Positions 4,033 through 13,983 of a stretch of 15,389 nt of DNA are shown here, piece by piece (position 1 is the stretch's first letter; each line of letters begins with the position of its first letter). Made by a program: the position numbers and the translations under genes. The notes beneath the pieces are model-generated. The model had not been told where the DNA came from. It did no database searches and worked only from the letters and a program-made list of their open reading frames with translations. The stretch comes from Candidatus Bathyarchaeota archaeon (GTDB lineage Archaea > Thermoproteota > Bathyarchaeia > Bathyarchaeales > Bathyarchaeaceae): positions 1-15,389 of the forward strand of contig CAVOMX010000013.1 in the NCBI GenBank assembly GCA_963697165.1, written 5' to 3'.

Positions 4033-5493
4033 TTAATTGTTTGTGTCTGTGAAGAAAAGTCTTGTTTGTCCCATAGTTTTGATGTCGAGGGCTCTGACAT
4101 TCACCATCACAGGAAAATCGTTAACTGCTTTTCCAATGAGCAGACAGTGATGAGGCGGAAGTTCCTGAGCAATAGACTTCACGGTTTCAGAATCTACTCT
4201 TGCAGCCTTTGAAACGGTTTCCAAATCACGTTCGTTGCTGAAGTTGAAGAGAAAGACGCTGTCGGCTTGGCGATAGATGTTCTCTTTTATTGTGTCAGGC
4301 TGATTAGTCACAAAATTGGTGAACAAACCAAAGTGCCTCATCCGCGTAACGATGTCTTCCCAGTATGTTTCCCTGAGGTAAAGATGTGCCTCCTCTGCAA
4401 ACAGGAAAACAGACTTGATTTTCCATTGACCAAGAATCTTCACAAGATTCCCAAGAGTATACTCCAGCACAATCTGGCGGTCAACCGACGAAACATCCTT
4501 CAGGTTGATTACTAAGGCTCCGCCATCCTTCTTGGTTTTCTCGAAAAGCTGCTCAAAGCTTGTTGCAGACTCTTCGTTGTCTGTGAAAAAGCCTGAATTT
4601 ACGAGGCTGTAGTAACGGGAGAACAGAGCATCCCGCACATGCATGTTACCGCCAGATTGCTTGATTGCTTCTCCAAGACCTTCAAGAGAGATTTTTCTTT
4701 GTTGACACAATGTTTTCCATATGTGTTTAAACTCTCTGGTGGATGTTCCGGGAAGATCCAGAGCGTGAATCATTATCTTCAAAATGACGCTTAAGCCCAT
4801 CTGAGCCAAAGAAACCTTGAAGTTTGCTCCGGGAGTAAGCACATGCACCCTGCTGCTGTACTCGTTGTCTTCTCCCTTAGCGGAAAGACCCATCCCCGTG
4901 TATTCGCCGTTAAGGTCAAGAACCACAACCGTAGCCTTGTAGTCAACAAGACCCAAAACAAGCAGTTTCGAAAGATGAGATTTTCCTGTTCCCTTCTTGC
5001 CGGTTATAATATTTAGTCTTCCGTCGAGGTCATGAGCCGTGATGTTCAAAGGAGAACCATCCTTTGTTTCGCCGATGTTGATGGGAAGCTCTGTGCTGCC
5101 GCCAACATGCGCCAGCAAAGCGTTGATTGGAATTTTTGTGATTCCAGAATTGGAGCGGGAAGGAAGCCACGACGAATTTATGCGTAGTTTATCGTTTAGT
5201 ATTGTTCCTCGAATTTTGCAAATGAGCATACGGGCGTCTTGGATATGATTTATGTGTGATGAGATGCCTAGTGGGTCAAAGCTTTCGCCATAAACCTGTT
5301 CTTCGGTTGTGGAGTCGCGGAGAAGTTCTTCAAGAAGCCCTGGAACACTGGCGAACTGGACGTCGATTACCTGCGTGATCAGTTTCCTGTTGACCATTGT
5401 GTCTTCTACGAGAAGATAGTCGCCTTTCTCAACGTCGTCGCTTGGAGAGCTGAGAATCTGGATGCTGTTTCCTTCTTTCTTGTAGAGCCGCAT
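4033..5493 (-). CDS. herA: HerA/FtsK-like ATPase (DUF87 / helicase HerA family)
   Basis: N-terminal HAS-barrel-like region, Walker A GKKGTGKS, DLNGEY, Walker B FLFAEEAH, RMRHFG and VTNQP. Starts 3 bp after the nurA stop. Confidence 0.88.
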   Translation of the reverse strand: MRLYKKEGNSIQILSSPSDDVEKGDYLLVEDTMVNRKLITQVIDVQFASVPGLLEELLRDSTTEEQVYGESFDPLGISSHINHIQDARMLICKIRGTILNDKLRINSSWLPSRSNSGITKIPINALLAHVGGSTELPINIGETKDGSPLNITAHDLDGRLNIITGKKGTGKSHLSKLLVLGLVDYKATVVVLDLNGEYTGMGLSAKGEDNEYSSRVHVLTPGANFKVSLAQMGLSVILKIMIHALDLPGTSTREFKHIWKTLCQQRKISLEGLGEAIKQSGGNMHVRDALFSRYYSLVNSGFFTDNEESATSFEQLFEKTKKDGGALVINLKDVSSVDRQIVLEYTLGNLVKILGQWKIKSVFLFAEEAHLYLRETYWEDIVTRMRHFGLFTNFVTNQPDTIKENIYRQADSVFLFNFSNERDLETVSKAARVDSETVKSIAQELPPHHCLLIGKAVNDFPVMVNVRALDIKTMGQTRLFFTDTNN

Positions 5494-5496
5494 CTG

Positions 5497-6579
5497 TTAT
5501 CCCTCTGCTCCTTTGCCGAAGGGACCAAAAAGCATCCGCCGCACGTTCGGTCTGGTAACTATCTTGAGTCCATATTGTTGGGCTATGAACCGCTGGATGC
5601 CGATTACTTCGGTGGCTGTGAAGGTTGAGTATATGTGAGCCATCCGTAACGTTTCAGGGTAGCTTTGAATCAGCAGGTCGCTTCCTAGAAGACTCTGAAC
5701 TGCCTCTATGCCCTGTTCTTGTGGAACCTTTTTGTCGATGTCTAACCTGAAGGAGCATACTCCGCGAGTTAGTTTTGCGATGTAGATGTTTCCAAGGAGT
5801 AGAACTGGACCTGAAGATGCTGGAAAATTGTTTATTTGCAGAAGACATGGAGGCACCGCTTTTTCTGCGTAATCTGTTAGTTTGTGACCTGAGAACCTCA
5901 AATTGGTGTTTTTGGAGAATGCTAGGACAGTGTTGAGGCGGTTTCTTGCGATTTCTAGGAGCCGTGACATTTCATCCACGGGGCTGTCAGCCATTCCTGC
6001 TGTCATGGAGCCGTCCCATAGAATGATGGTGCCGTATGTCGAACAGGAGATGCCCAGTTGGAGCCAGCGTTCGAGTAGGTTGCCCATTCTGGCTTGCATA
6101 TTGACGATGTTTGGGGTTTCTGAGAATTCGAAGTGATTGTTTCTGAAGAGTTTGTGGATTTCTTTTTTGTTTTGTTCTGTTATGTGGAATGGGAATGGTC
6201 CTATCCGTTGGTATTTGTATCTGTTTTTTTCTTTCCAGACTATTGCTCCTCTTATTGCGCAGAGTTCGCCTGTTTCGGTTTCTCCTATTCGTATGCTTGA
6301 AACGTCGATAGCAACGACTGGTCTTTCGTTTGTGGTTGGCTGTAGTTGGATTGTCTTTATTGTGGAGGGTTGTTGAATCTTCATGATTGGTGTTGCGTCT
6401 GCAATATGTTCTGTTGCGGGTTGGTTGATTGGGGTTTGGTTGAGTTGTAGGTAACTGCTTTCTATGTTTTTCATGGAGCTTAGGCTTAGTTCTATGAATG
6501 CTTGTGGGAGCTGTAGTTGTTGGATGGAGGGTGGAAATTTATATGTTGGTGTTGTTGTATAGTTTAATTGTTCAATCAA
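5497..6579 (-). CDS. nurA: NurA-family nuclease with a Q/P/T-rich N-terminal extension
   Basis: VVAIDVSS, ILWDGSM, FSKNT and YPETLRMAH follow the NurA motif pattern, and the gene is coupled to herA. Start codon (TTG 6579) is uncertain. Confidence 0.8.
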   Translation of the reverse strand: MIEQLNYTTTPTYKFPPSIQQLQLPQAFIELSLSSMKNIESSYLQLNQTPINQPATEHIADATPIMKIQQPSTIKTIQLQPTTNERPVVAIDVSSIRIGETETGELCAIRGAIVWKEKNRYKYQRIGPFPFHITEQNKKEIHKLFRNNHFEFSETPNIVNMQARMGNLLERWLQLGISCSTYGTIILWDGSMTAGMADSPVDEMSRLLEIARNRLNTVLAFSKNTNLRFSGHKLTDYAEKAVPPCLLQINNFPASSGPVLLLGNIYIAKLTRGVCSFRLDIDKKVPQEQGIEAVQSLLGSDLLIQSYPETLRMAHIYSTFTATEVIGIQRFIAQQYGLKIVTRPNVRRMLFGPFGKGAEG

Positions 6580-7099: not shown

Positions 7100-7353
7100 T
7101 CAGTTAAGGCACTTTGAAGAATCTTTTAGTTCTTTCCACTTGGCAACAAAATCTCGTCCTTACTCGGTTGCCACATATTTTGTTAACTCGTCTTTGATTT
7201 ACAGAAACCCATGTTCTTACATGAAAGAGAGATAATCCTGAAGCATCTTCCCTGACAGATTTGTGCCCTACATAAACCGCTTCTTGGTCTTCGGCTTGAA
7301 CACAAACCAAGAATCTACGCCATAATTTCTATGCGATCTCTCTCACTACTCAT
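7100..7353 (-). pseudogene. Degraded archaeal winged-helix regulator (HTH_45 / COG3432-like)
   Basis: From ATG 7353: MSSERDRIEIMA*ILGLCS / frameshift / KPKTKKRFM*GTNLSGKMLQDYLSFM*EHGFL*IKDELTKYVATE*GRDFVAKWKELKD. Five internal stops (7315, 7268, 7217, 7199, 7160) and one frameshift near 7298. Confidence 0.8.
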
Positions 7354-7546: not shown

Positions 7547-7594
7547 AAAAAGTCGCCTAATTACTGTCATGCGACTTTGGTTAGGCAGCTAACC
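7547..7594 (-). terminator. Tandem hairpins plus T-run downstream of the reductase operon
   Basis: Minus strand reads GGTTAG-CTGC-CTAACC, then AAAGTCGC-N14-GCGACTTT ending in TTTTT, about 45 nt after the ferredoxin stop. Confidence 0.45.
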
Positions 7595-7636: not shown

Positions 7637-7933
7637 CTATCTTGGTTTCCAGATACATTTTATTGCATTCTGGCTACATGCTTGAATACAAGGCACGCTG
7701 CCGCTTTCAGGTTTGCATGGCGAACAGGTGTATCTGATTTTTTTGCGGTGCTCTTCCGTAACTGCGGCTACCATCTTGTCTTCCAGGTCAATAAACATGG
7801 CTTCCATTTTCAAGGCATTCTGTGGACATTTCTGTATACAGTCGCCGCAGCTGTCGCATTTCTCCGCGTCGATGACTATGTAGTATTCACCTGATCCATC
7901 TTGGTAACCATAATATGTTATAACCTGTATCAC
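7637..7933 (-). CDS. 2[4Fe-4S] ferredoxin, BzdM-like
   Basis: YYGYQDGSGEYYIVID N-terminus, CDSCGDCIQKCP and CSPC-x8-CIQAC. Start moved to GTG 7933 (uncertain) because the track's 8026 start overlaps the upstream gene. Confidence 0.85.
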   Translation of the reverse strand: MIQVITYYGYQDGSGEYYIVIDAEKCDSCGDCIQKCPQNALKMEAMFIDLEDKMVAAVTEEHRKKIRYTCSPCKPESGSVPCIQACSQNAIKCIWKPR

Positions 7934-7937
7934 CCTC

Positions 7938-8840
7938 TCAGCGTTTGAGAGACTTCTCATATAATGCCTTGGCGAATAGGGCAGCTCCAATAGCGCCTGC
8001 GGAAGCGGGGTCCCGGCCAGTTTCATTCAAGTCTGGAACTGGAAGTCGCTTTACGCCCAGTATGTTCTCCACTCTGTGGACTAATCCGATGTTTTTGGAT
8101 TGTCCACCAGTTATTACGAAGTCTTTTTCGCAGCCCACCTTTTCTATGAGTTCGCTCATTCTGACAGCCATGGCTCTGATATATGACGCTAACACCTTCT
8201 CTTTAGACCATCCCTTACGCAATAGCCCAACTGCCTCTGTTTTCGCGAATACAACACAGGTGCTGCTAACAGGCTCAGGTTCCTCAGTTACTCTCAGGGA
8301 TACTTTGCCAACATCTTCGATGGGTATCTTCAACAAGTCAGCGATGACTTCCATTCCTCGTCCCGTGCCAGCTGCACACTTGTCGTTCATCAGAAAAGAT
8401 ACAACTTTGCCGTTCTCGTCGCAGCGAATAGCTTTGACGTCCTGCCCGCCAACATCCAGCACCGTTCTTACGGATTGTCCCCAGATGTAGTTGGCGCCTT
8501 TGGCGTGGCATGCAATTTCTGTGATGGCTCTGTTAGCCATGGGAACATTAACTCGTCCGTAACCAGTTCCCACAATATAATTGAAGTCTTTTAACGTCAA
8601 TCCAGTGTTTTCCATTGCCCACCCAAGCGCTTTATTTGCGCTATCAGAGCTGTTTGAGCCAGTTCGCATTACGCTCCACGCGTATATCTCCCCATCAGCC
8701 ATGATTACCGCCTTAGAACCCACTGAACCAACGTCGACCCCAGCGGTTATTACTTCAGCATTCTTCCAGTTCATGTTTGGCATAACTCGTTGATACTCGA
8801 GCCATCTCCAGTAATCCATTTTTCCATTGTTTTTCTCCAT
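7938..8840 (-). CDS. bzdQ: ATP-dependent activator subunit, benzoyl-CoA reductase BzdQ-like (BcrAD/BadFG ASKHA family)
   Basis: YWRW...ITAGVDVGSVGSK N-terminus recalled as typical of BzdQ; GTGYGR, EIACHAKGA, DVGGQD, MNDKCAAGTGRG and SSTCVVFA (two cluster Cys). Confidence 0.85.
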   Translation of the reverse strand: MEKNNGKMDYWRWLEYQRVMPNMNWKNAEVITAGVDVGSVGSKAVIMADGEIYAWSVMRTGSNSSDSANKALGWAMENTGLTLKDFNYIVGTGYGRVNVPMANRAITEIACHAKGANYIWGQSVRTVLDVGGQDVKAIRCDENGKVVSFLMNDKCAAGTGRGMEVIADLLKIPIEDVGKVSLRVTEEPEPVSSTCVVFAKTEAVGLLRKGWSKEKVLASYIRAMAVRMSELIEKVGCEKDFVITGGQSKNIGLVHRVENILGVKRLPVPDLNETGRDPASAGAIGAALFAKALYEKSLKR

Positions 8841-8844
8841 CAAT

Positions 8845-9627
8845 TTATTGCCTCCTTCCAGCTCTTTTGGCGGCGATTAAGGCTGCTCCTACTGCGCCGG
8901 CATACAGTGGTTCTTCAGGTATCAGTATGTCCATTCCCATTCGTCTCTTAAGAGAAGCAACAAAACCGACATCTTTGGCCGCTCCTCCCACAAGCACAAT
9001 ATCCTGATTTATTCCCAACCGATGCACCATAGAGGAGACCCTCTCAGCCATGGCATCAAAGATTGCCCTTGCGATTTCGCTCTTTGGTTCTTCCCTATGA
9101 ATCAAAGAAACCACATCAGACTCCGCGAAGATGACACAACTAGCATTTATTGGGCTTGCCCGCTCTGCCTTCAAAGCCAATGAACCCATATCCTCCAAAT
9201 CCACTTCCAATGCTCTAGCCATTGCCTCGATGAAGGTGCCGGCTCCGGCTGCACACCGGGCATTCACAACAAAATCCAGAAGTACTCCATTTTCGTCACA
9301 CTTAACTGCCCGCGCATCCTCAGCCCCAACATCTACCACTGTTCTGGCTGAAGAAAAAAAGTAGGCTCCTGCTCTGGCGTCTGCTCCCATCATGCTTATA
9401 CTGCTATCTGCGAATGGAGCCATCTTAACGCCTGCGCCAGTTGCCGTAACATGCTGTATGTCTGTGCGGGACAGCTTTGCGTTCTGCAGTGCCTCTTCGA
9501 AGGCTTGTTCAGCAGCTTTTGTAGGTTCGAATCCTGAAAATTGTTGGCACTGAGCTATTATTTGTTTGTCTTTCAGAATTGCCACCTTCACCCTTTGGGT
9601 GCCCATGTCTATTCCAGCGGATATCAT
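8845..9627 (-). CDS. bzdP: ATP-dependent activator subunit, BzdP-like (BcrAD/BadFG ASKHA family)
   Basis: AGIDMG, ATGAG, DVGAED, NARCAAGAGTFIEAMARAL and NASCVIFAESDVVSLIH. Confidence 0.8.
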   Translation of the reverse strand: MISAGIDMGTQRVKVAILKDKQIIAQCQQFSGFEPTKAAEQAFEEALQNAKLSRTDIQHVTATGAGVKMAPFADSSISMMGADARAGAYFFSSARTVVDVGAEDARAVKCDENGVLLDFVVNARCAAGAGTFIEAMARALEVDLEDMGSLALKAERASPINASCVIFAESDVVSLIHREEPKSEIARAIFDAMAERVSSMVHRLGINQDIVLVGGAAKDVGFVASLKRRMGMDILIPEEPLYAGAVGAALIAAKRAGRRQ

Positions 9628-9639
9628 TTCTTGTTCTCC

Positions 9640-10974
9640 TCAAATGTCGATACGGGCTTCCAGCATCTCTAGGAATGCTTCAACTCTTGTCTTCATCTGT
9701 CCCACATCTTCCCTGGTGTATTCCGTGTCAAGGTAATACACGGGTATATTCATGCGGTCTAGGACACGCTTGATTCGCGCGTACTCCATGGCATAGAGAA
9801 TGCACCCTCGAACTACGTAATAAATTACTCCGTCAACCTTGTATTCTTTGATTCGATCCATAATCCAGTTCACGCGGTCCTCGTTTCCATGTTCTGATGT
9901 GAAGCAGGGGCATGTGCATGCCATGATGTATCGTTCGCTTATGGCATCTAGCATGTCGCTCATTGTCCATTCATCTACTCCAACGGGATCAAAGAGAATT
10001 CTGTCCCCCGAACATTGTTCATCAATAACCACTACTCCCTGGGGGTTAGATTCTTCAATCAGGTTAGGAACCTTCCAGCTGTCTGGCCATAACATTGGGG
10101 TTCCTGTAATCATCACTCTTGGTGTGTCAGGATGAGAAGAATACTCTTTTTGTTCAACCCGTTTTTCTAGTTCCTCGCACAACTCGTTCACCTTTTGTGT
10201 CCAACGTTCAATGTTGTCCCAGAGACTAGTTTGGTTCACAAGCATGGCATCTCTTCCATTGATTACTGGAGCTCCTTTCCGTATTTCCTGTAGCCTACGA
10301 AAAGCCTTTGTTGCTTTCTGCATAGTCTCTATTGCGTCTTTAAGTTTTTTTCTGGTGATCTTGTTTCCTGTCAGTTTCTCAATTTTTTCTTTTATTACAA
10401 TTAAATCTTTTTTCCACATTGTCAAAGTGTGGGGATCATCTTTGACGCGTGGAGGATTCATGACCCATATTGGTTTGTAGTCTGACAGGATTTCGCTCAG
10501 TTTGGTTCTACCATCGCATGTCAGAGGGTTTATTATGGCATCGCTGAGCTCAAGATATGGGGACAGGCTCACCATCTTTGCGCCGACCGTTGATCTTATA
10601 ACGGGGCAGACTTCAACGGGCATGATTCTGTCTCCCAGTTTTGCTGTGTCATACCATCCTGAACCTATACGAACCGGAATGGCGCCGGCGGCCAAAATCA
10701 GTTCGATCGGAGCGAGAATGCAGGAGTAGCCGATGACCTTTTTTCCCGTTTCTTTTTGTTCACGAATCTCTTTTTCGCGTTGCCCAAACAAGTTTGAGAT
10801 TTCATCAAAATATTCCATGGCTTTCGGTCGGTTCTTCCATGTTTTTTTCATTCTTTCAATGTTTTCTTTGATCACTTTCATGGATACTGCTTTGATCGAG
10901 TTTCTAAGTTCCTCGATTTCTGTCTTGGACATATCAGGAATATATTTTGTTCCTTTTTCGATTTCGCTTGCCAT
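9640..10974 (-). CDS. 2-hydroxyacyl-CoA dehydratase D (HgdD) family Fe-S protein, double-cubane cluster reductase-like
   Basis: GYSC85, PIELILAAGAIPVR, EVC123P, LTC153DG, EQC321SG, C353TC355PC357, RGC391 and C-terminal TEY...GQMKTRVEAFLE. AAGGGG RBS upstream. Confidence 0.85.
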   Translation of the reverse strand: MASEIEKGTKYIPDMSKTEIEELRNSIKAVSMKVIKENIERMKKTWKNRPKAMEYFDEISNLFGQREKEIREQKETGKKVIGYSCILAPIELILAAGAIPVRIGSGWYDTAKLGDRIMPVEVCPVIRSTVGAKMVSLSPYLELSDAIINPLTCDGRTKLSEILSDYKPIWVMNPPRVKDDPHTLTMWKKDLIVIKEKIEKLTGNKITRKKLKDAIETMQKATKAFRRLQEIRKGAPVINGRDAMLVNQTSLWDNIERWTQKVNELCEELEKRVEQKEYSSHPDTPRVMITGTPMLWPDSWKVPNLIEESNPQGVVVIDEQCSGDRILFDPVGVDEWTMSDMLDAISERYIMACTCPCFTSEHGNEDRVNWIMDRIKEYKVDGVIYYVVRGCILYAMEYARIKRVLDRMNIPVYYLDTEYTREDVGQMKTRVEAFLEMLEARIDI

Positions 10975-11376
10975 TCACATCCCCTTTTTATTCTTCTTTT
11001 GACCAGTTTTTGGATTTGTAGATTGGTTTGCGCCTGAAATGTAACTTACGATGTTTGGAAGGCACGCGGAAGCACAGAAATTAAGTCTATACACTAACGC
11101 TAATATAAACGAGGCAAAGTATGGGTTCGAAATTTGTTGTAACATAGTCATCTTAAGTTTGCCCTTAAACTTGTTAGAGCAGAAAATATAGCATAATAAC
11201 ATTTAACTATTGCCATAAAACCAGCGAATTAACTATTCAATATTTTAACTTCAAACTACAATCTTCCACTCTTTTTCCCTATAATTACTATGACATAAGT
11301 TGTTGGTTTAATTGATTGGATTAATATGTCGTAAGATTTAATAAACATCTTTGATTCCTATTATGGGGGGAATATT

Positions 11377-12560: not shown

Positions 12561-13526
12561 ATGGAGGAAATTATTAAATGGCTTTTGGAAGGAGAGCCTT
12601 GGGTTGAATACCGAACTCGCGTGGATTTGCTAGAACAATCTGAAATGGAATCTGAAGTAATTCATGCAAGAAAACAAATTATTACTCATCCAAAAATCCA
12701 ATTATTATTAGAAGAACTGAAAAACTGGCCTGGGACTGTCTTAAGTAGTCATAAAAGTGCAAGGCAGTCTTTCCATAAACTATCTTTTATTGCAAATTTT
12801 GGTCTAAAAAGCGACGATCCTCCAATTAATGAAATAATAAAAAAAATATATGAACATAAATCGGATGAAGGACCTTTCCAACTACCAATGAAAATTTCAA
12901 AACATTATGGAGGATCAGGAAACAATGAATGGGCATGGGCTTTATGCGATGCTCCAACCATAATTTATTCCTTAATAAAATTTGGACTTGACACAGATGA
13001 ACAAATTCAAAAAGCTGTAAGATACTTGGTTGACCTAGTCCGCCAAAACGGATGGCCTTGCGCTGTTTCAAAGGAACTGGGTAAATTTAGAGGACCAGGA
13101 AGAAAAGATGACTCTTGTCCTTATGCGACTCTTGGAATGCTCAAGATGTTATCTCAATTGGATAATTGGAAGGATAGCAAAGAAGTTCATGTTGGAACAG
13201 AATGCTTACTAGATTTGTGGAATAAGAGCAAAGAGCTGCATCCTTACATGTTTTATATGGGAACCGATTTCAGAAAAATCAAAGCACCATTGATTTGGTA
13301 TGATATTCTGCATGTTTTAGACGTGTTATCTCAATTTGATTGGTTAAGAAAAGATCCAAGACTAGAAGAAATGATGGATATAGTGAAGTCAAAGGCTAAT
13401 GATGAAGGAAAATTTATTCCTGAATCAGTATGGATGGAATGGAAAGGTTGGGATTTTGGACAAAAGAAACAACCTTCACGATGGCTTACATTCTTAATTC
13501 TAAAAACGCTAAAGAGAACTGGATAA
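12561..13526 (+). CDS. Conserved hypothetical protein, probable alpha/alpha-barrel (prenyltransferase/squalene-cyclase-like repeat) fold
   Basis: 321-aa ORF: IKWLLEGEPWVEYRT, QNGWPC, MGTDFRKIKAPLIWYDILHVLDVLS and PSRWLTF. Trp-rich helical pattern; function unknown. Confidence 0.7.
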   Translation: MEEIIKWLLEGEPWVEYRTRVDLLEQSEMESEVIHARKQIITHPKIQLLLEELKNWPGTVLSSHKSARQSFHKLSFIANFGLKSDDPPINEIIKKIYEHKSDEGPFQLPMKISKHYGGSGNNEWAWALCDAPTIIYSLIKFGLDTDEQIQKAVRYLVDLVRQNGWPCAVSKELGKFRGPGRKDDSCPYATLGMLKMLSQLDNWKDSKEVHVGTECLLDLWNKSKELHPYMFYMGTDFRKIKAPLIWYDILHVLDVLSQFDWLRKDPRLEEMMDIVKSKANDEGKFIPESVWMEWKGWDFGQKKQPSRWLTFLILKTLKRTG

Positions 13527-13593
13527 TAAGTTGAAACGTTTTCAATTTTTTATTAACTGGTTTTTTGGGTTTGGGGGGTTAAAATTTTACCCT

Positions 13594-13611
13594 AAAAAAG
13601 GGGGATTTTTG
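13594..13611. repeat. AAAAAAGGGGGA motif, copy 1 (others at 13998-14009 and 14854-14865)
   Basis: Exact 12-mer occurs three times. Copies 1 and 2 extend to A6G5A(T/G)TTTTG. Confidence 0.7.
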
Positions 13612-13716
13612 CAAGAATACAGTTTGACACTGTCCAAACTAAAAAATATCAACCTCAAATTTTTGTCTAGGATTATTTTTATAGCTAATAATCTATTGTT
13701 CTAATGGGGATTTCTT

Positions 13717-13983
13717 ATGAAGAATGATGATAGAGTTTGTCAGAGTTGTTGTTTACCGTTAAATGAAGACACATGTGGAACAGAGGCTAATGGAGATAGA
13801 AGTGAGGACTATTGTTGTCATTGTTATAAAAGCGGAGTTTTCACTAGGCCTGATACTACTTTGGAAACATTATTAGATATATCCGCAGAAGTTTGGGCAG
13901 AAAAAGATCCAAACATCACTCTTGAACAGGCTAAAGTTCAGCTTAGAAAGAAAATGCCTACTCTCAAAAGATGGACCGATTAA
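13717..13983 (+). CDS. Zinc-ribbon domain protein (Zn_ribbon_2-like)
   Basis: CQSCCLP...GTEANGDRSEDYCCHCYKSGVF...MPTLKRW matches the CQSCGMP / YC.YCY / LKRW family pattern. Confidence 0.85.
   Translation: MKNDDRVCQSCCLPLNEDTCGTEANGDRSEDYCCHCYKSGVFTRPDTTLETLLDISAEVWAEKDPNITLEQAKVQLRKKMPTLKRWTD

Follow-up and report, generated by a model that had tools for sequence, protein, structure and literature searches.

The window described here is a stretch of 15,389 nt from contig C13 of a 1.99-Mb, 81% complete assembly of a Candidatus Bathyarchaeota archaeon (GCA_963697165.1), and it carries on its minus strand a compact operon for a double-cubane cluster (DCC) protein, two different ATPase subunits and a ferredoxin:

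9640–10974, minus strand: double-cubane cluster protein (DCCP lineage, napH-linked branch), 444 aa
8845–9627, minus strand: BzdP-type ASKHA ATPase subunit (P), 260 aa; cluster cysteines C125 and C164
7938–8840, minus strand: BzdQ-type ASKHA ATPase subunit (Q), 300 aa counted from an ATG, a TTG lying one codon earlier; cluster cysteines C155 and C195
7637–7933, minus strand: BzdM-type ferredoxin, 98 aa counted from a GTG

The four genes are separated by only 12, 4 and 4 bp, bearing out the tight array described in an earlier, sequence-only reading of this DNA, and they include the single PF06050 gene and both PF01869 genes that tblastn and family searches recovered from the assembly. That reading had proposed a hybrid in which the electron-input module of an aryl-CoA reductase (BzdPQ and BzdM) feeds a DCCP-type subunit in the absence of BzdN and BzdO, and family scores, fold and trees all uphold this core claim. 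We regard it as highly probable that the operon is a mosaic and not a benzoyl-CoA reductase.

The 444-aa protein passes the double-cubane model NF040772, if marginally (356 bits, cut-off 350), and falls far short of the models for BzdN (TIGR03190, 95.5 versus 453.8 bits), BzdO (20.8 versus 448.6) and the dehydratase subunits HadC (108 versus 700) and HadB (27 versus 750). Its nearest solved sequence is DCCP of Carboxydothermus hydrogenoformans (6ENO, E 2e-81; BzdN 8S02_B, E 4e-27), with which it shares 35–38% identity. Aligned to 6ENO, the predicted [8Fe-9S] ligands are C85, C123, C153, C321, C355 and C391, three per domain, and all six are invariant in an alignment of 111 homologues. An AlphaFold2 model (pLDDT 93.9) has 6ENO as its best fold match (template-modelling (TM) score 0.88 over 426 columns; BzdN, 0.76). 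The dehydratases HadBC/HadI and the Mbd-type reductase MbdONPQ (3O3M, 9GAI) share the superfamily and the fold (TM 0.64–0.76) but are built from two different three-Cys subunits. The operon does not match a 2-hydroxyacyl-CoA dehydratase, as one six-Cys subunit stands in place of a three-Cys alpha/beta pair.

Two further features distinguish the protein. At the N-terminus, where it is about 50 residues longer than BzdN, the model contains a helical extension (helices 17–45 and 53–59); in DCCP the N-terminal helices close the CoA channel (PMC7317905), and predicted helices matching these channel-closing ones of class I DCCP are present here. At the position of the seventh, non-ligating Cys (C94 in DCCP), which sits at the opening above the cluster (PMC7317905), the 444-aa protein has G104. 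This Cys is missing from all 39 sequences linked to P and Q, which have G, N, S or D there, while nine of the 10 nearest outside relatives and 3/3 canonical DCCPs retain it; BzdN has Leu in five of five. Equating the site with Glu65 of BzdO fits by spacing (W46+19, C75+19), while the alignment puts the Glu in an insertion, and the match stands unconfirmed. An additional Cys353 was rejected as a conserved feature (C in just 14 of 39).

In a tree of 57 rows the 444-aa protein falls within a 25-row clade of DCC proteins linked to napH-like genes (SH-aLRT 96), distant from BzdN and also set off from the canonical DCCPs. Forcing its union with BzdN costs 155 log units and is rejected by an approximately unbiased (AU) test (p 4e-6); grouping with BzdN or BzdO, which would have spoken against a hybrid, was not found. 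All named homologues belong to Bathyarchaeia. We place it among the double-cubane proteins, as a variant, and not among the benzoyl-CoA reductases. One 759-aa protein (P0131) joins a DCC protein of the napH-linked branch to a single activator domain.

The activators and the ferredoxin have a different ancestry. For BzdP and BzdM, which lack family models, assignment was by identity to, and trees with, the genes at those positions in bzdNOPQM loci. P and Q are only 33% identical to each other, whereas P shares 47–58% identity with BzdP, and Q 61–68% with BzdQ, of seven verified bzdNOPQ loci; the ferredoxin is 49–61% identical to the one trailing bzdQ in six bzdNOPQM loci, and the genome's other ferredoxins score at most 32 bits against it. 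Against these values of 47–68%, the 444-aa protein is just 27–28% identical to the BzdN of the same loci. Q passes TIGR03192 by a marginal 0.5 bits (380.7, cut-off 380.2), a result backed by the trees: with 140 activator rows, P groups with true BzdP and Q with true BzdQ (support 100 each; 100/100 for the P clade), while the activators from 41 napH-DCC loci fall elsewhere. When 24 further BzdQ, picked from 115 matches without regard to gene context and including named bacterial ones, were added, the DCC-linked Q formed a single clade (100/99) inside a poorly resolved BzdQ radiation. The activator trees cover BzdP and BzdQ from outside the proteobacteria. A search of plasmids for BzdQ found none (best match 43%).

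Both activators carry their cluster Cys pair, as had been noted earlier, although the motif SxCxxF claimed for each holds only in Q (SSTCVVF); P reads ASCVIF. The ATPase motifs of Q (DxGS, TGYGR, TEI, GGQD) are complete and invariant in 24 of 24 sequences. P, aligned to 7YYL_E, has M79 in place of the glutamate E69 of the DCCP activator DCCP-R, a position occupied by M, V or I in 40 of 40 sequences, and the true BzdP of locus L075 likewise lacks an equivalent. Substitution of E69 lowers DCCP-R's ATPase activity about tenfold (PMC9351452). On these alignments, P and Q probably form an asymmetric pump in which ATP would be hydrolysed mainly at Q. The eight Cys of the ferredoxin make up two 4Fe-4S sets (C26/29/32/36 and C70/73/82/86). 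A complex prediction with P, Q and a single chain of the 444-aa protein, which includes half of the expected dimer interface, scored 0.07 against a mark of 0.32 and was counted neither for nor against docking.

The operon therefore resembles two known systems in part. Like DCCP/DCCP-R of C. hydrogenoformans (6ENO, 7YYL, 7YZM, 7YZQ; PMC7317905, PMC9351452), it combines a single six-Cys subunit bearing an N-terminal extension with an adjoining ASKHA ATPase; unlike it, there are two distinct activators of Bzd ancestry rather than one homodimeric activator, a dedicated ferredoxin, no seventh Cys, and a separate, napH-linked branch of the tree. Like the Bzd-type reductase (BzdNOPQ with BzdM; 8S02; PMC11971306, PMC5658619), it has closely related P, Q and M in the same order and a double cubane as electron recipient (BzdN there), whereas BzdN and BzdO themselves are absent. 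In that enzyme the [8Fe-9S] double cubane resides in BzdN, and the substrate site in BzdO (PMC11971306). BzdPQ feeding a double cubane is thus not new in itself, and the novelty of the proposed hybrid is confined to the lack of BzdO and to what would be a DCCP-lineage homodimer served by BzdPQ.

We surveyed 251 genomes of the class, counting as operon-positive those with a homologue of the 444-aa protein at 63% identity or more. There are 37, all within one taxonomic order. Among 35 loci compared, three end at the 444-aa gene and 31 of the remaining 32 have P and Q directly behind it, with an intact ferredoxin in 30 of these 31. One PF06050 gene is present in 29 of the 37 genomes; seven have a second one similar to canonical DCCP (class matches at 39–41%; two of the seven were scanned and reach about 500 on NF040772), and one has a sub-cut-off match. 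Neither BzdN nor BzdO, nor any separate partner subunit encoded elsewhere, was found in the 37 genomes, of which the 36 relatives of our own assembly are at least 90% complete. In five of the genomes with two DCCPs (G141, G177, G135, G156 and G090; 90–99% complete), P and Q are the sole PF01869 genes; a sixth, G201, has a third.

True N-O-P-Q(-M) operons do occur nearby: they were verified in seven related genomes, BzdO exceeding its cut-off in the four tested, and their order is that of the Azoarcus operon (PMC5658619). These loci (L070, L071, L073, L075, L085, L102 and L104) are from sister genera, L071 includes had and oah genes over cut-off, and the DCC-PQ operon is in none of the genomes that hold them. 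The hydratase gene flanking the true operons, itself below the Dch cut-off, has an orthologue (53% identity or more) in six of the seven verified bzd genomes and in none of the 37. Oah passes its cut-off in one of 37 and one of seven, and is a non-discriminating control; the one operon genome concerned has the DCC-PQ operon only (G248:C1:5846-6934). Judged by Oah and this hydratase, the downstream ring-cleavage genes appear to be mostly missing alongside the operon.

DCCPs scoring above 400 bits co-occur with SelD in 955 of 970 cases (bioRxiv 10.1101/2022.07.06.499078). Here, unlike in that set, SelD is present in only 14 of the 37 genomes, among them all seven with a canonical DCCP, and in none of eight from the genus of our assembly, and we rejected a selenium link for the napH-linked PQ branch. 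Canonical DCCPs of Bathyarchaeia (L089, L090, L091 and L093; G177, G201, G212 and G091) do adjoin SelD, with SepSecS nearby in L090 and L093, and in five genomes they lack a dedicated activator. The SelD of G201 and of G212 has an in-frame TGA; a TGA near the DCCP of G091 lies outside the reading frame and was rejected as such a codon.

The sequence-only reading took the unit to be complete, bounded by a divergent gene upstream and by hairpins and a pseudogene downstream. Both boundary genes are real, but the list of features around the operon contains one that alters the conclusion:

11032–11151, minus strand: DsbD_2/CcdA-like remnant, first 40 codons of the membrane gene placed at the head of the operon in relatives; 72% over 40 aa to the PF13386 protein of locus L006
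11377–12282, plus strand: divergent gene for a hydrophobic 301-aa protein without NCBIfam or Pfam match; upstream boundary only
7549–7578, minus strand: inverted repeat of 8 bp followed by a T run, a possible 3′ end; not above chance
7121–7353, minus strand: pseudogene of a 90-aa protein, found by tblastn; downstream boundary, outside the conserved unit

Completeness does not survive, because the remnant of a membrane gene lies directly upstream and such genes are found at the loci of relatives: at 25 of the 33 loci with upstream sequence there is a DsbD_2 (PF13386) gene, a NapH-like Fer4_5 membrane gene, both, or a piece of one, and nine of the 33 have a CARDB protein. The four conserved genes are one part, the cytoplasmic core, of a larger system that also has partners in the membrane. 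The pseudogene, which we take to be that of a winged-helix protein, has internal stops and a frameshift relative to intact 90-aa homologues, one of which occurs at five of 35 related loci. As for hairpins, the single 8-bp repeat is all that was found; a terminator scan of the window gave no minus-strand site and two sites overall (4.1 expected in shuffles), the promoter and terminator scans, with a bacterial consensus applied to an archaeal host, being no better than shuffles. In all four RNA runs examined (of eight listed), assembled contigs had pieces on the operon; such contigs do not show transcription, strand or co-transcription.

Across genomes, membrane genes co-occur with the operon. 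All 37 of the operon genomes have members of the NapH-like family, in one to five copies, as against two of 29 others (G055 plus G153, the latter with a bzdQ–ferredoxin pair at a contig start), and DsbD_2 is present in 33 of 37 as against none of 29. Our own assembly has two intact napH-like genes, both off the operon contig (on C5 and C12). Beside them lie CARDB genes, each frameshifted, whether by decay or by an assembly error (L190:2368-5274 and L191:2554-5527). Paralogous napH-like copies mostly adjoin exported proteins (CARDB, NosD-like or unclassified). Five NapH-like proteins are long (L195:7383-9056, L198:6471-8105, L199:6277-7887, L200:6221-7846 and L204:5447-7024), and their extra N-terminal domain bears, behind a signal-like stretch, the conserved motif CYGPH; three adjoin a NosD-like gene.

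The same partners recur at metagenome loci. Metagenomes yielded at least 560 loci with outside relatives of the 444-aa protein; among the best 80, which were analysed, 46 loci without PQ carry a napH-like gene. Of these, 37 have one activator (in a few, the sequence stops shortly behind it), four have two non-Bzd activators, four are cut short, and in L115 a bzdP-Q-ferredoxin block lies about 2.3 kb upstream of napH-DCC. The napH-like/DCCP/single activator/dsbD2 operons (L118–L178) share the DCC branch and the membrane partners of the present operon; unlike it, they keep the seventh Cys, have one activator of another clade, and often lie near TonB receptors. G055, in which napH-DCC lacks an activator next to it and a true bzdNOPQ operon lies elsewhere in the genome, possibly represents a half-way state. 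Loci L109–L114 encode DCC proteins with two distinct non-Bzd activators, a second type of heterodimeric activator, with L112 and L113 situated after genes for WD40/FG-GAP propellers. A scan of neighbours at 33 napH-DCC metagenome loci (72 of 110 picked open reading frames) found TonB-dependent receptors at 13 loci, weak or full DUF4198 matches at six, and a CobN-type chelatase at one, as well as beside one Bzd-PQ-type locus.

As a whole, the best explanation, and in our judgement a likely one, is that the operon encodes a mosaic, ATP-driven low-potential reductase working with membrane Fe-S modules. A member of the widespread napH-like/DCCP/ATPase/dsbD2 system would have adopted the bzdP-Q-M block of a Bzd-type benzoyl-CoA reductase operon in place of its own activator. 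We favour this direction on three grounds: BzdN has its origin outside this branch, most of the relatives carry a single activator, and in our sample the operon is found in one order only. The 2x[4Fe-4S] ferredoxin would reduce a [4Fe-4S] cluster bridging P and Q. By analogy with 7YZM, hydrolysis of ATP, for the most part probably at the site in Q, would then send electrons one by one into the [8Fe-9S] clusters of a 444-aa protein homodimer, on which P and Q would dock. The computations bear out which subunits these are, their conflicting ancestries, the lack of BzdN and BzdO, and the joint occurrence with the membrane genes; the cluster types, the ATP-driven transfer and the homodimer are carried over from established knowledge. 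The very low-potential electrons would then be used together with the NapH-like membrane Fe-S proteins and the DsbD_2 membrane protein, to or from which they may flow; that the operon is functionally tied to this membrane module seems probable. We suggest more tentatively a relay role in mobilizing a metal complex captured at the surface, a guess based on the loss of the seventh Cys, the presence of one reductase for several membrane modules, and uptake-type neighbours. That the substrate is such a metal or metal-cofactor complex, mobilized reductively, is possible, though the odds are against it.

Several observations weigh against this interpretation. Linkage is loose: no full-length DsbD_2 was found in our own assembly (the remnant only), eight of the 33 loci have neither membrane gene, and at L037 the gene is broken, with P and Q missing. 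The genomes compared are kin rather than independent samples. Monophyly of the true BzdP or true BzdQ sets is not rejected (p 0.29 each), and thus the trees alone do not establish that the DCC-linked P and Q are nested within Bzd, nor the direction of transfer. Two non-Bzd activators are present at six metagenome loci, and an activator made of two different subunits could therefore be older than the Bzd block. Finally, it is mostly bacterial-type loci that supply the context of metal uptake.

The main rival is catalysis of a small-molecule reduction at the cluster itself. In this case the operon would be a self-contained cytoplasmic enzyme, its double cubane catalytic like that of class I DCCP, which acts on acetylene, hydrazine and azide in vitro, and the membrane protein would be an electron feeder or a passenger. 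The class I features (the N-terminal extension and the best fold match to 6ENO) favour it, as does the persistence of the four genes in our assembly though the membrane genes are detached. Against it, the seventh Cys is absent from every PQ-linked sequence, as it is from the electron relay BzdN, and NapH-like genes track the operon across genomes. We consider this rival improbable, if worth keeping in view. A bolder extension of the mosaic reading, to which we assign a similarly low probability, is that the double cubane is a non-catalytic, ATP-charged hub: one DCC-PQM complex would serve interchangeable NapH-like conduits, each with its own exported protein, and push very low-potential electrons to or across the membrane for metal release or attack on refractory extracellular matter, while P and Q would be promiscuous enough to serve a second, selenium-linked DCCP as well.

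Less probable again is that the operon is a surviving intermediate, with a DCCP homodimer and PQ heterodimer ancestral to BzdNO, which then arose by duplication. A DCCP-like precursor of BzdNO has been proposed (PMC11971306), and AU tests permit the DCC-linked P and Q as sister to all Bzd. BzdN, however, groups with other beta subunits and not with the napH-linked branch, single activators prevail at the napH-DCC loci, the operon's restriction to one order fits poorly with such an origin, and the loss of the E69-equivalent is shared by P and the true BzdP of L075.

KEGG-style bcrA/C/D labels imply a class I benzoyl-CoA reductase, or a reductase of another aryl-CoA, in simplified and homodimeric form, a reading that we regard as very unlikely. 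It can draw on the Bzd-type activators and ferredoxin, on a gene order X-P-Q-M that matches bzdNOPQM (PMC5658619), and on the one Oah over cut-off. Yet BzdO, which has the substrate site and the catalytic [4Fe-4S]-OH2 (PMC11971306), is in none of the 37 genomes; all six Cys are kept, and there is therefore no space from a lost subcluster; and the hydratase that flanks true bzd operons has no orthologue in any of the 37. The gene trio seems to have been noticed in print once: in Ca. Bathyarchaeum tardum, three adjacent genes were reported as 'BcrACD' without BcrB, an incomplete benzoyl-CoA reductase, in an organism described as having no aromatic CoA ligases and inhibited by benzoate (PMC10477458). 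The named record of that paper (L006) has the DCC-PQ operon (86/79/88% identity), and the C-D-A order of the published accessions is in keeping with it. Equally unlikely is a general ATP-dependent reactivator of corrinoid methyltransferase proteins in place of RACE/RamA: RACo (PF14574) is in three of 37 operon genomes as against 15 of 29 others and an O-demethylase activator is given as 'not detected' in Ca. B. tardum (PMC10477458 supplement), but the RACo pattern follows family (six of seven operon-negative f2 genomes also lack it), no methyltransferase family recurs among the neighbours, and the membrane genes are left unexplained.

Elsewhere in the window, positions 4033–6579 encode a HerA-like ATPase of 486 aa (weak matches to NF042943 and NF053655) and a 360-aa neighbour without family match, a pair conserved on the operon's downstream side at about 10 of 35 loci. 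At 12561–13983, in a low-GC stretch (33–35%), lie genes for a 321-aa protein without a convincing family and an 88-aa Zn_ribbon_2 protein.

Our literature search, with most subscription papers outside it, found no paper on a DCCP with BzdPQ or NapH-like partners and none on the napH-like/DCCP/single activator/dsbD2 operons; the accessible parts of PMC10116835, PMC7306483, PMC10418091 and PMC10134865 contain nothing on the DCC-PQ architecture. Meanwhile bcr genes have been taken as evidence of aromatic degradation (PMC6472368, PMC12694404, bioRxiv 10.64898/2026.05.21.726758). As the BzdO-less operon is present in 37 of 251 genomes and true bzdNOPQ is verified in seven, matches to bcrA/C/D need to be checked for BzdO; without it, the operon most likely does not break aromatic rings despite such annotation.

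Bathyarchaeia, archaea common in sediments, are among the most abundant microbes of the subsurface, and in an organism that has been cultivated the operon ties particular membrane partners to a DCCP lineage whose natural role has been described as unknown. It also constitutes a natural module swap within the BCR/HAD/DCCP family, one that allows tests of whether an aryl-CoA-reductase pump can drive a DCCP and whether one ATPase site is sufficient. Were the hub reading true, it would provide an ATP-driven outward electron route for which no precedent has been described, and would give a protein of the DCCP lineage its first physiological role.

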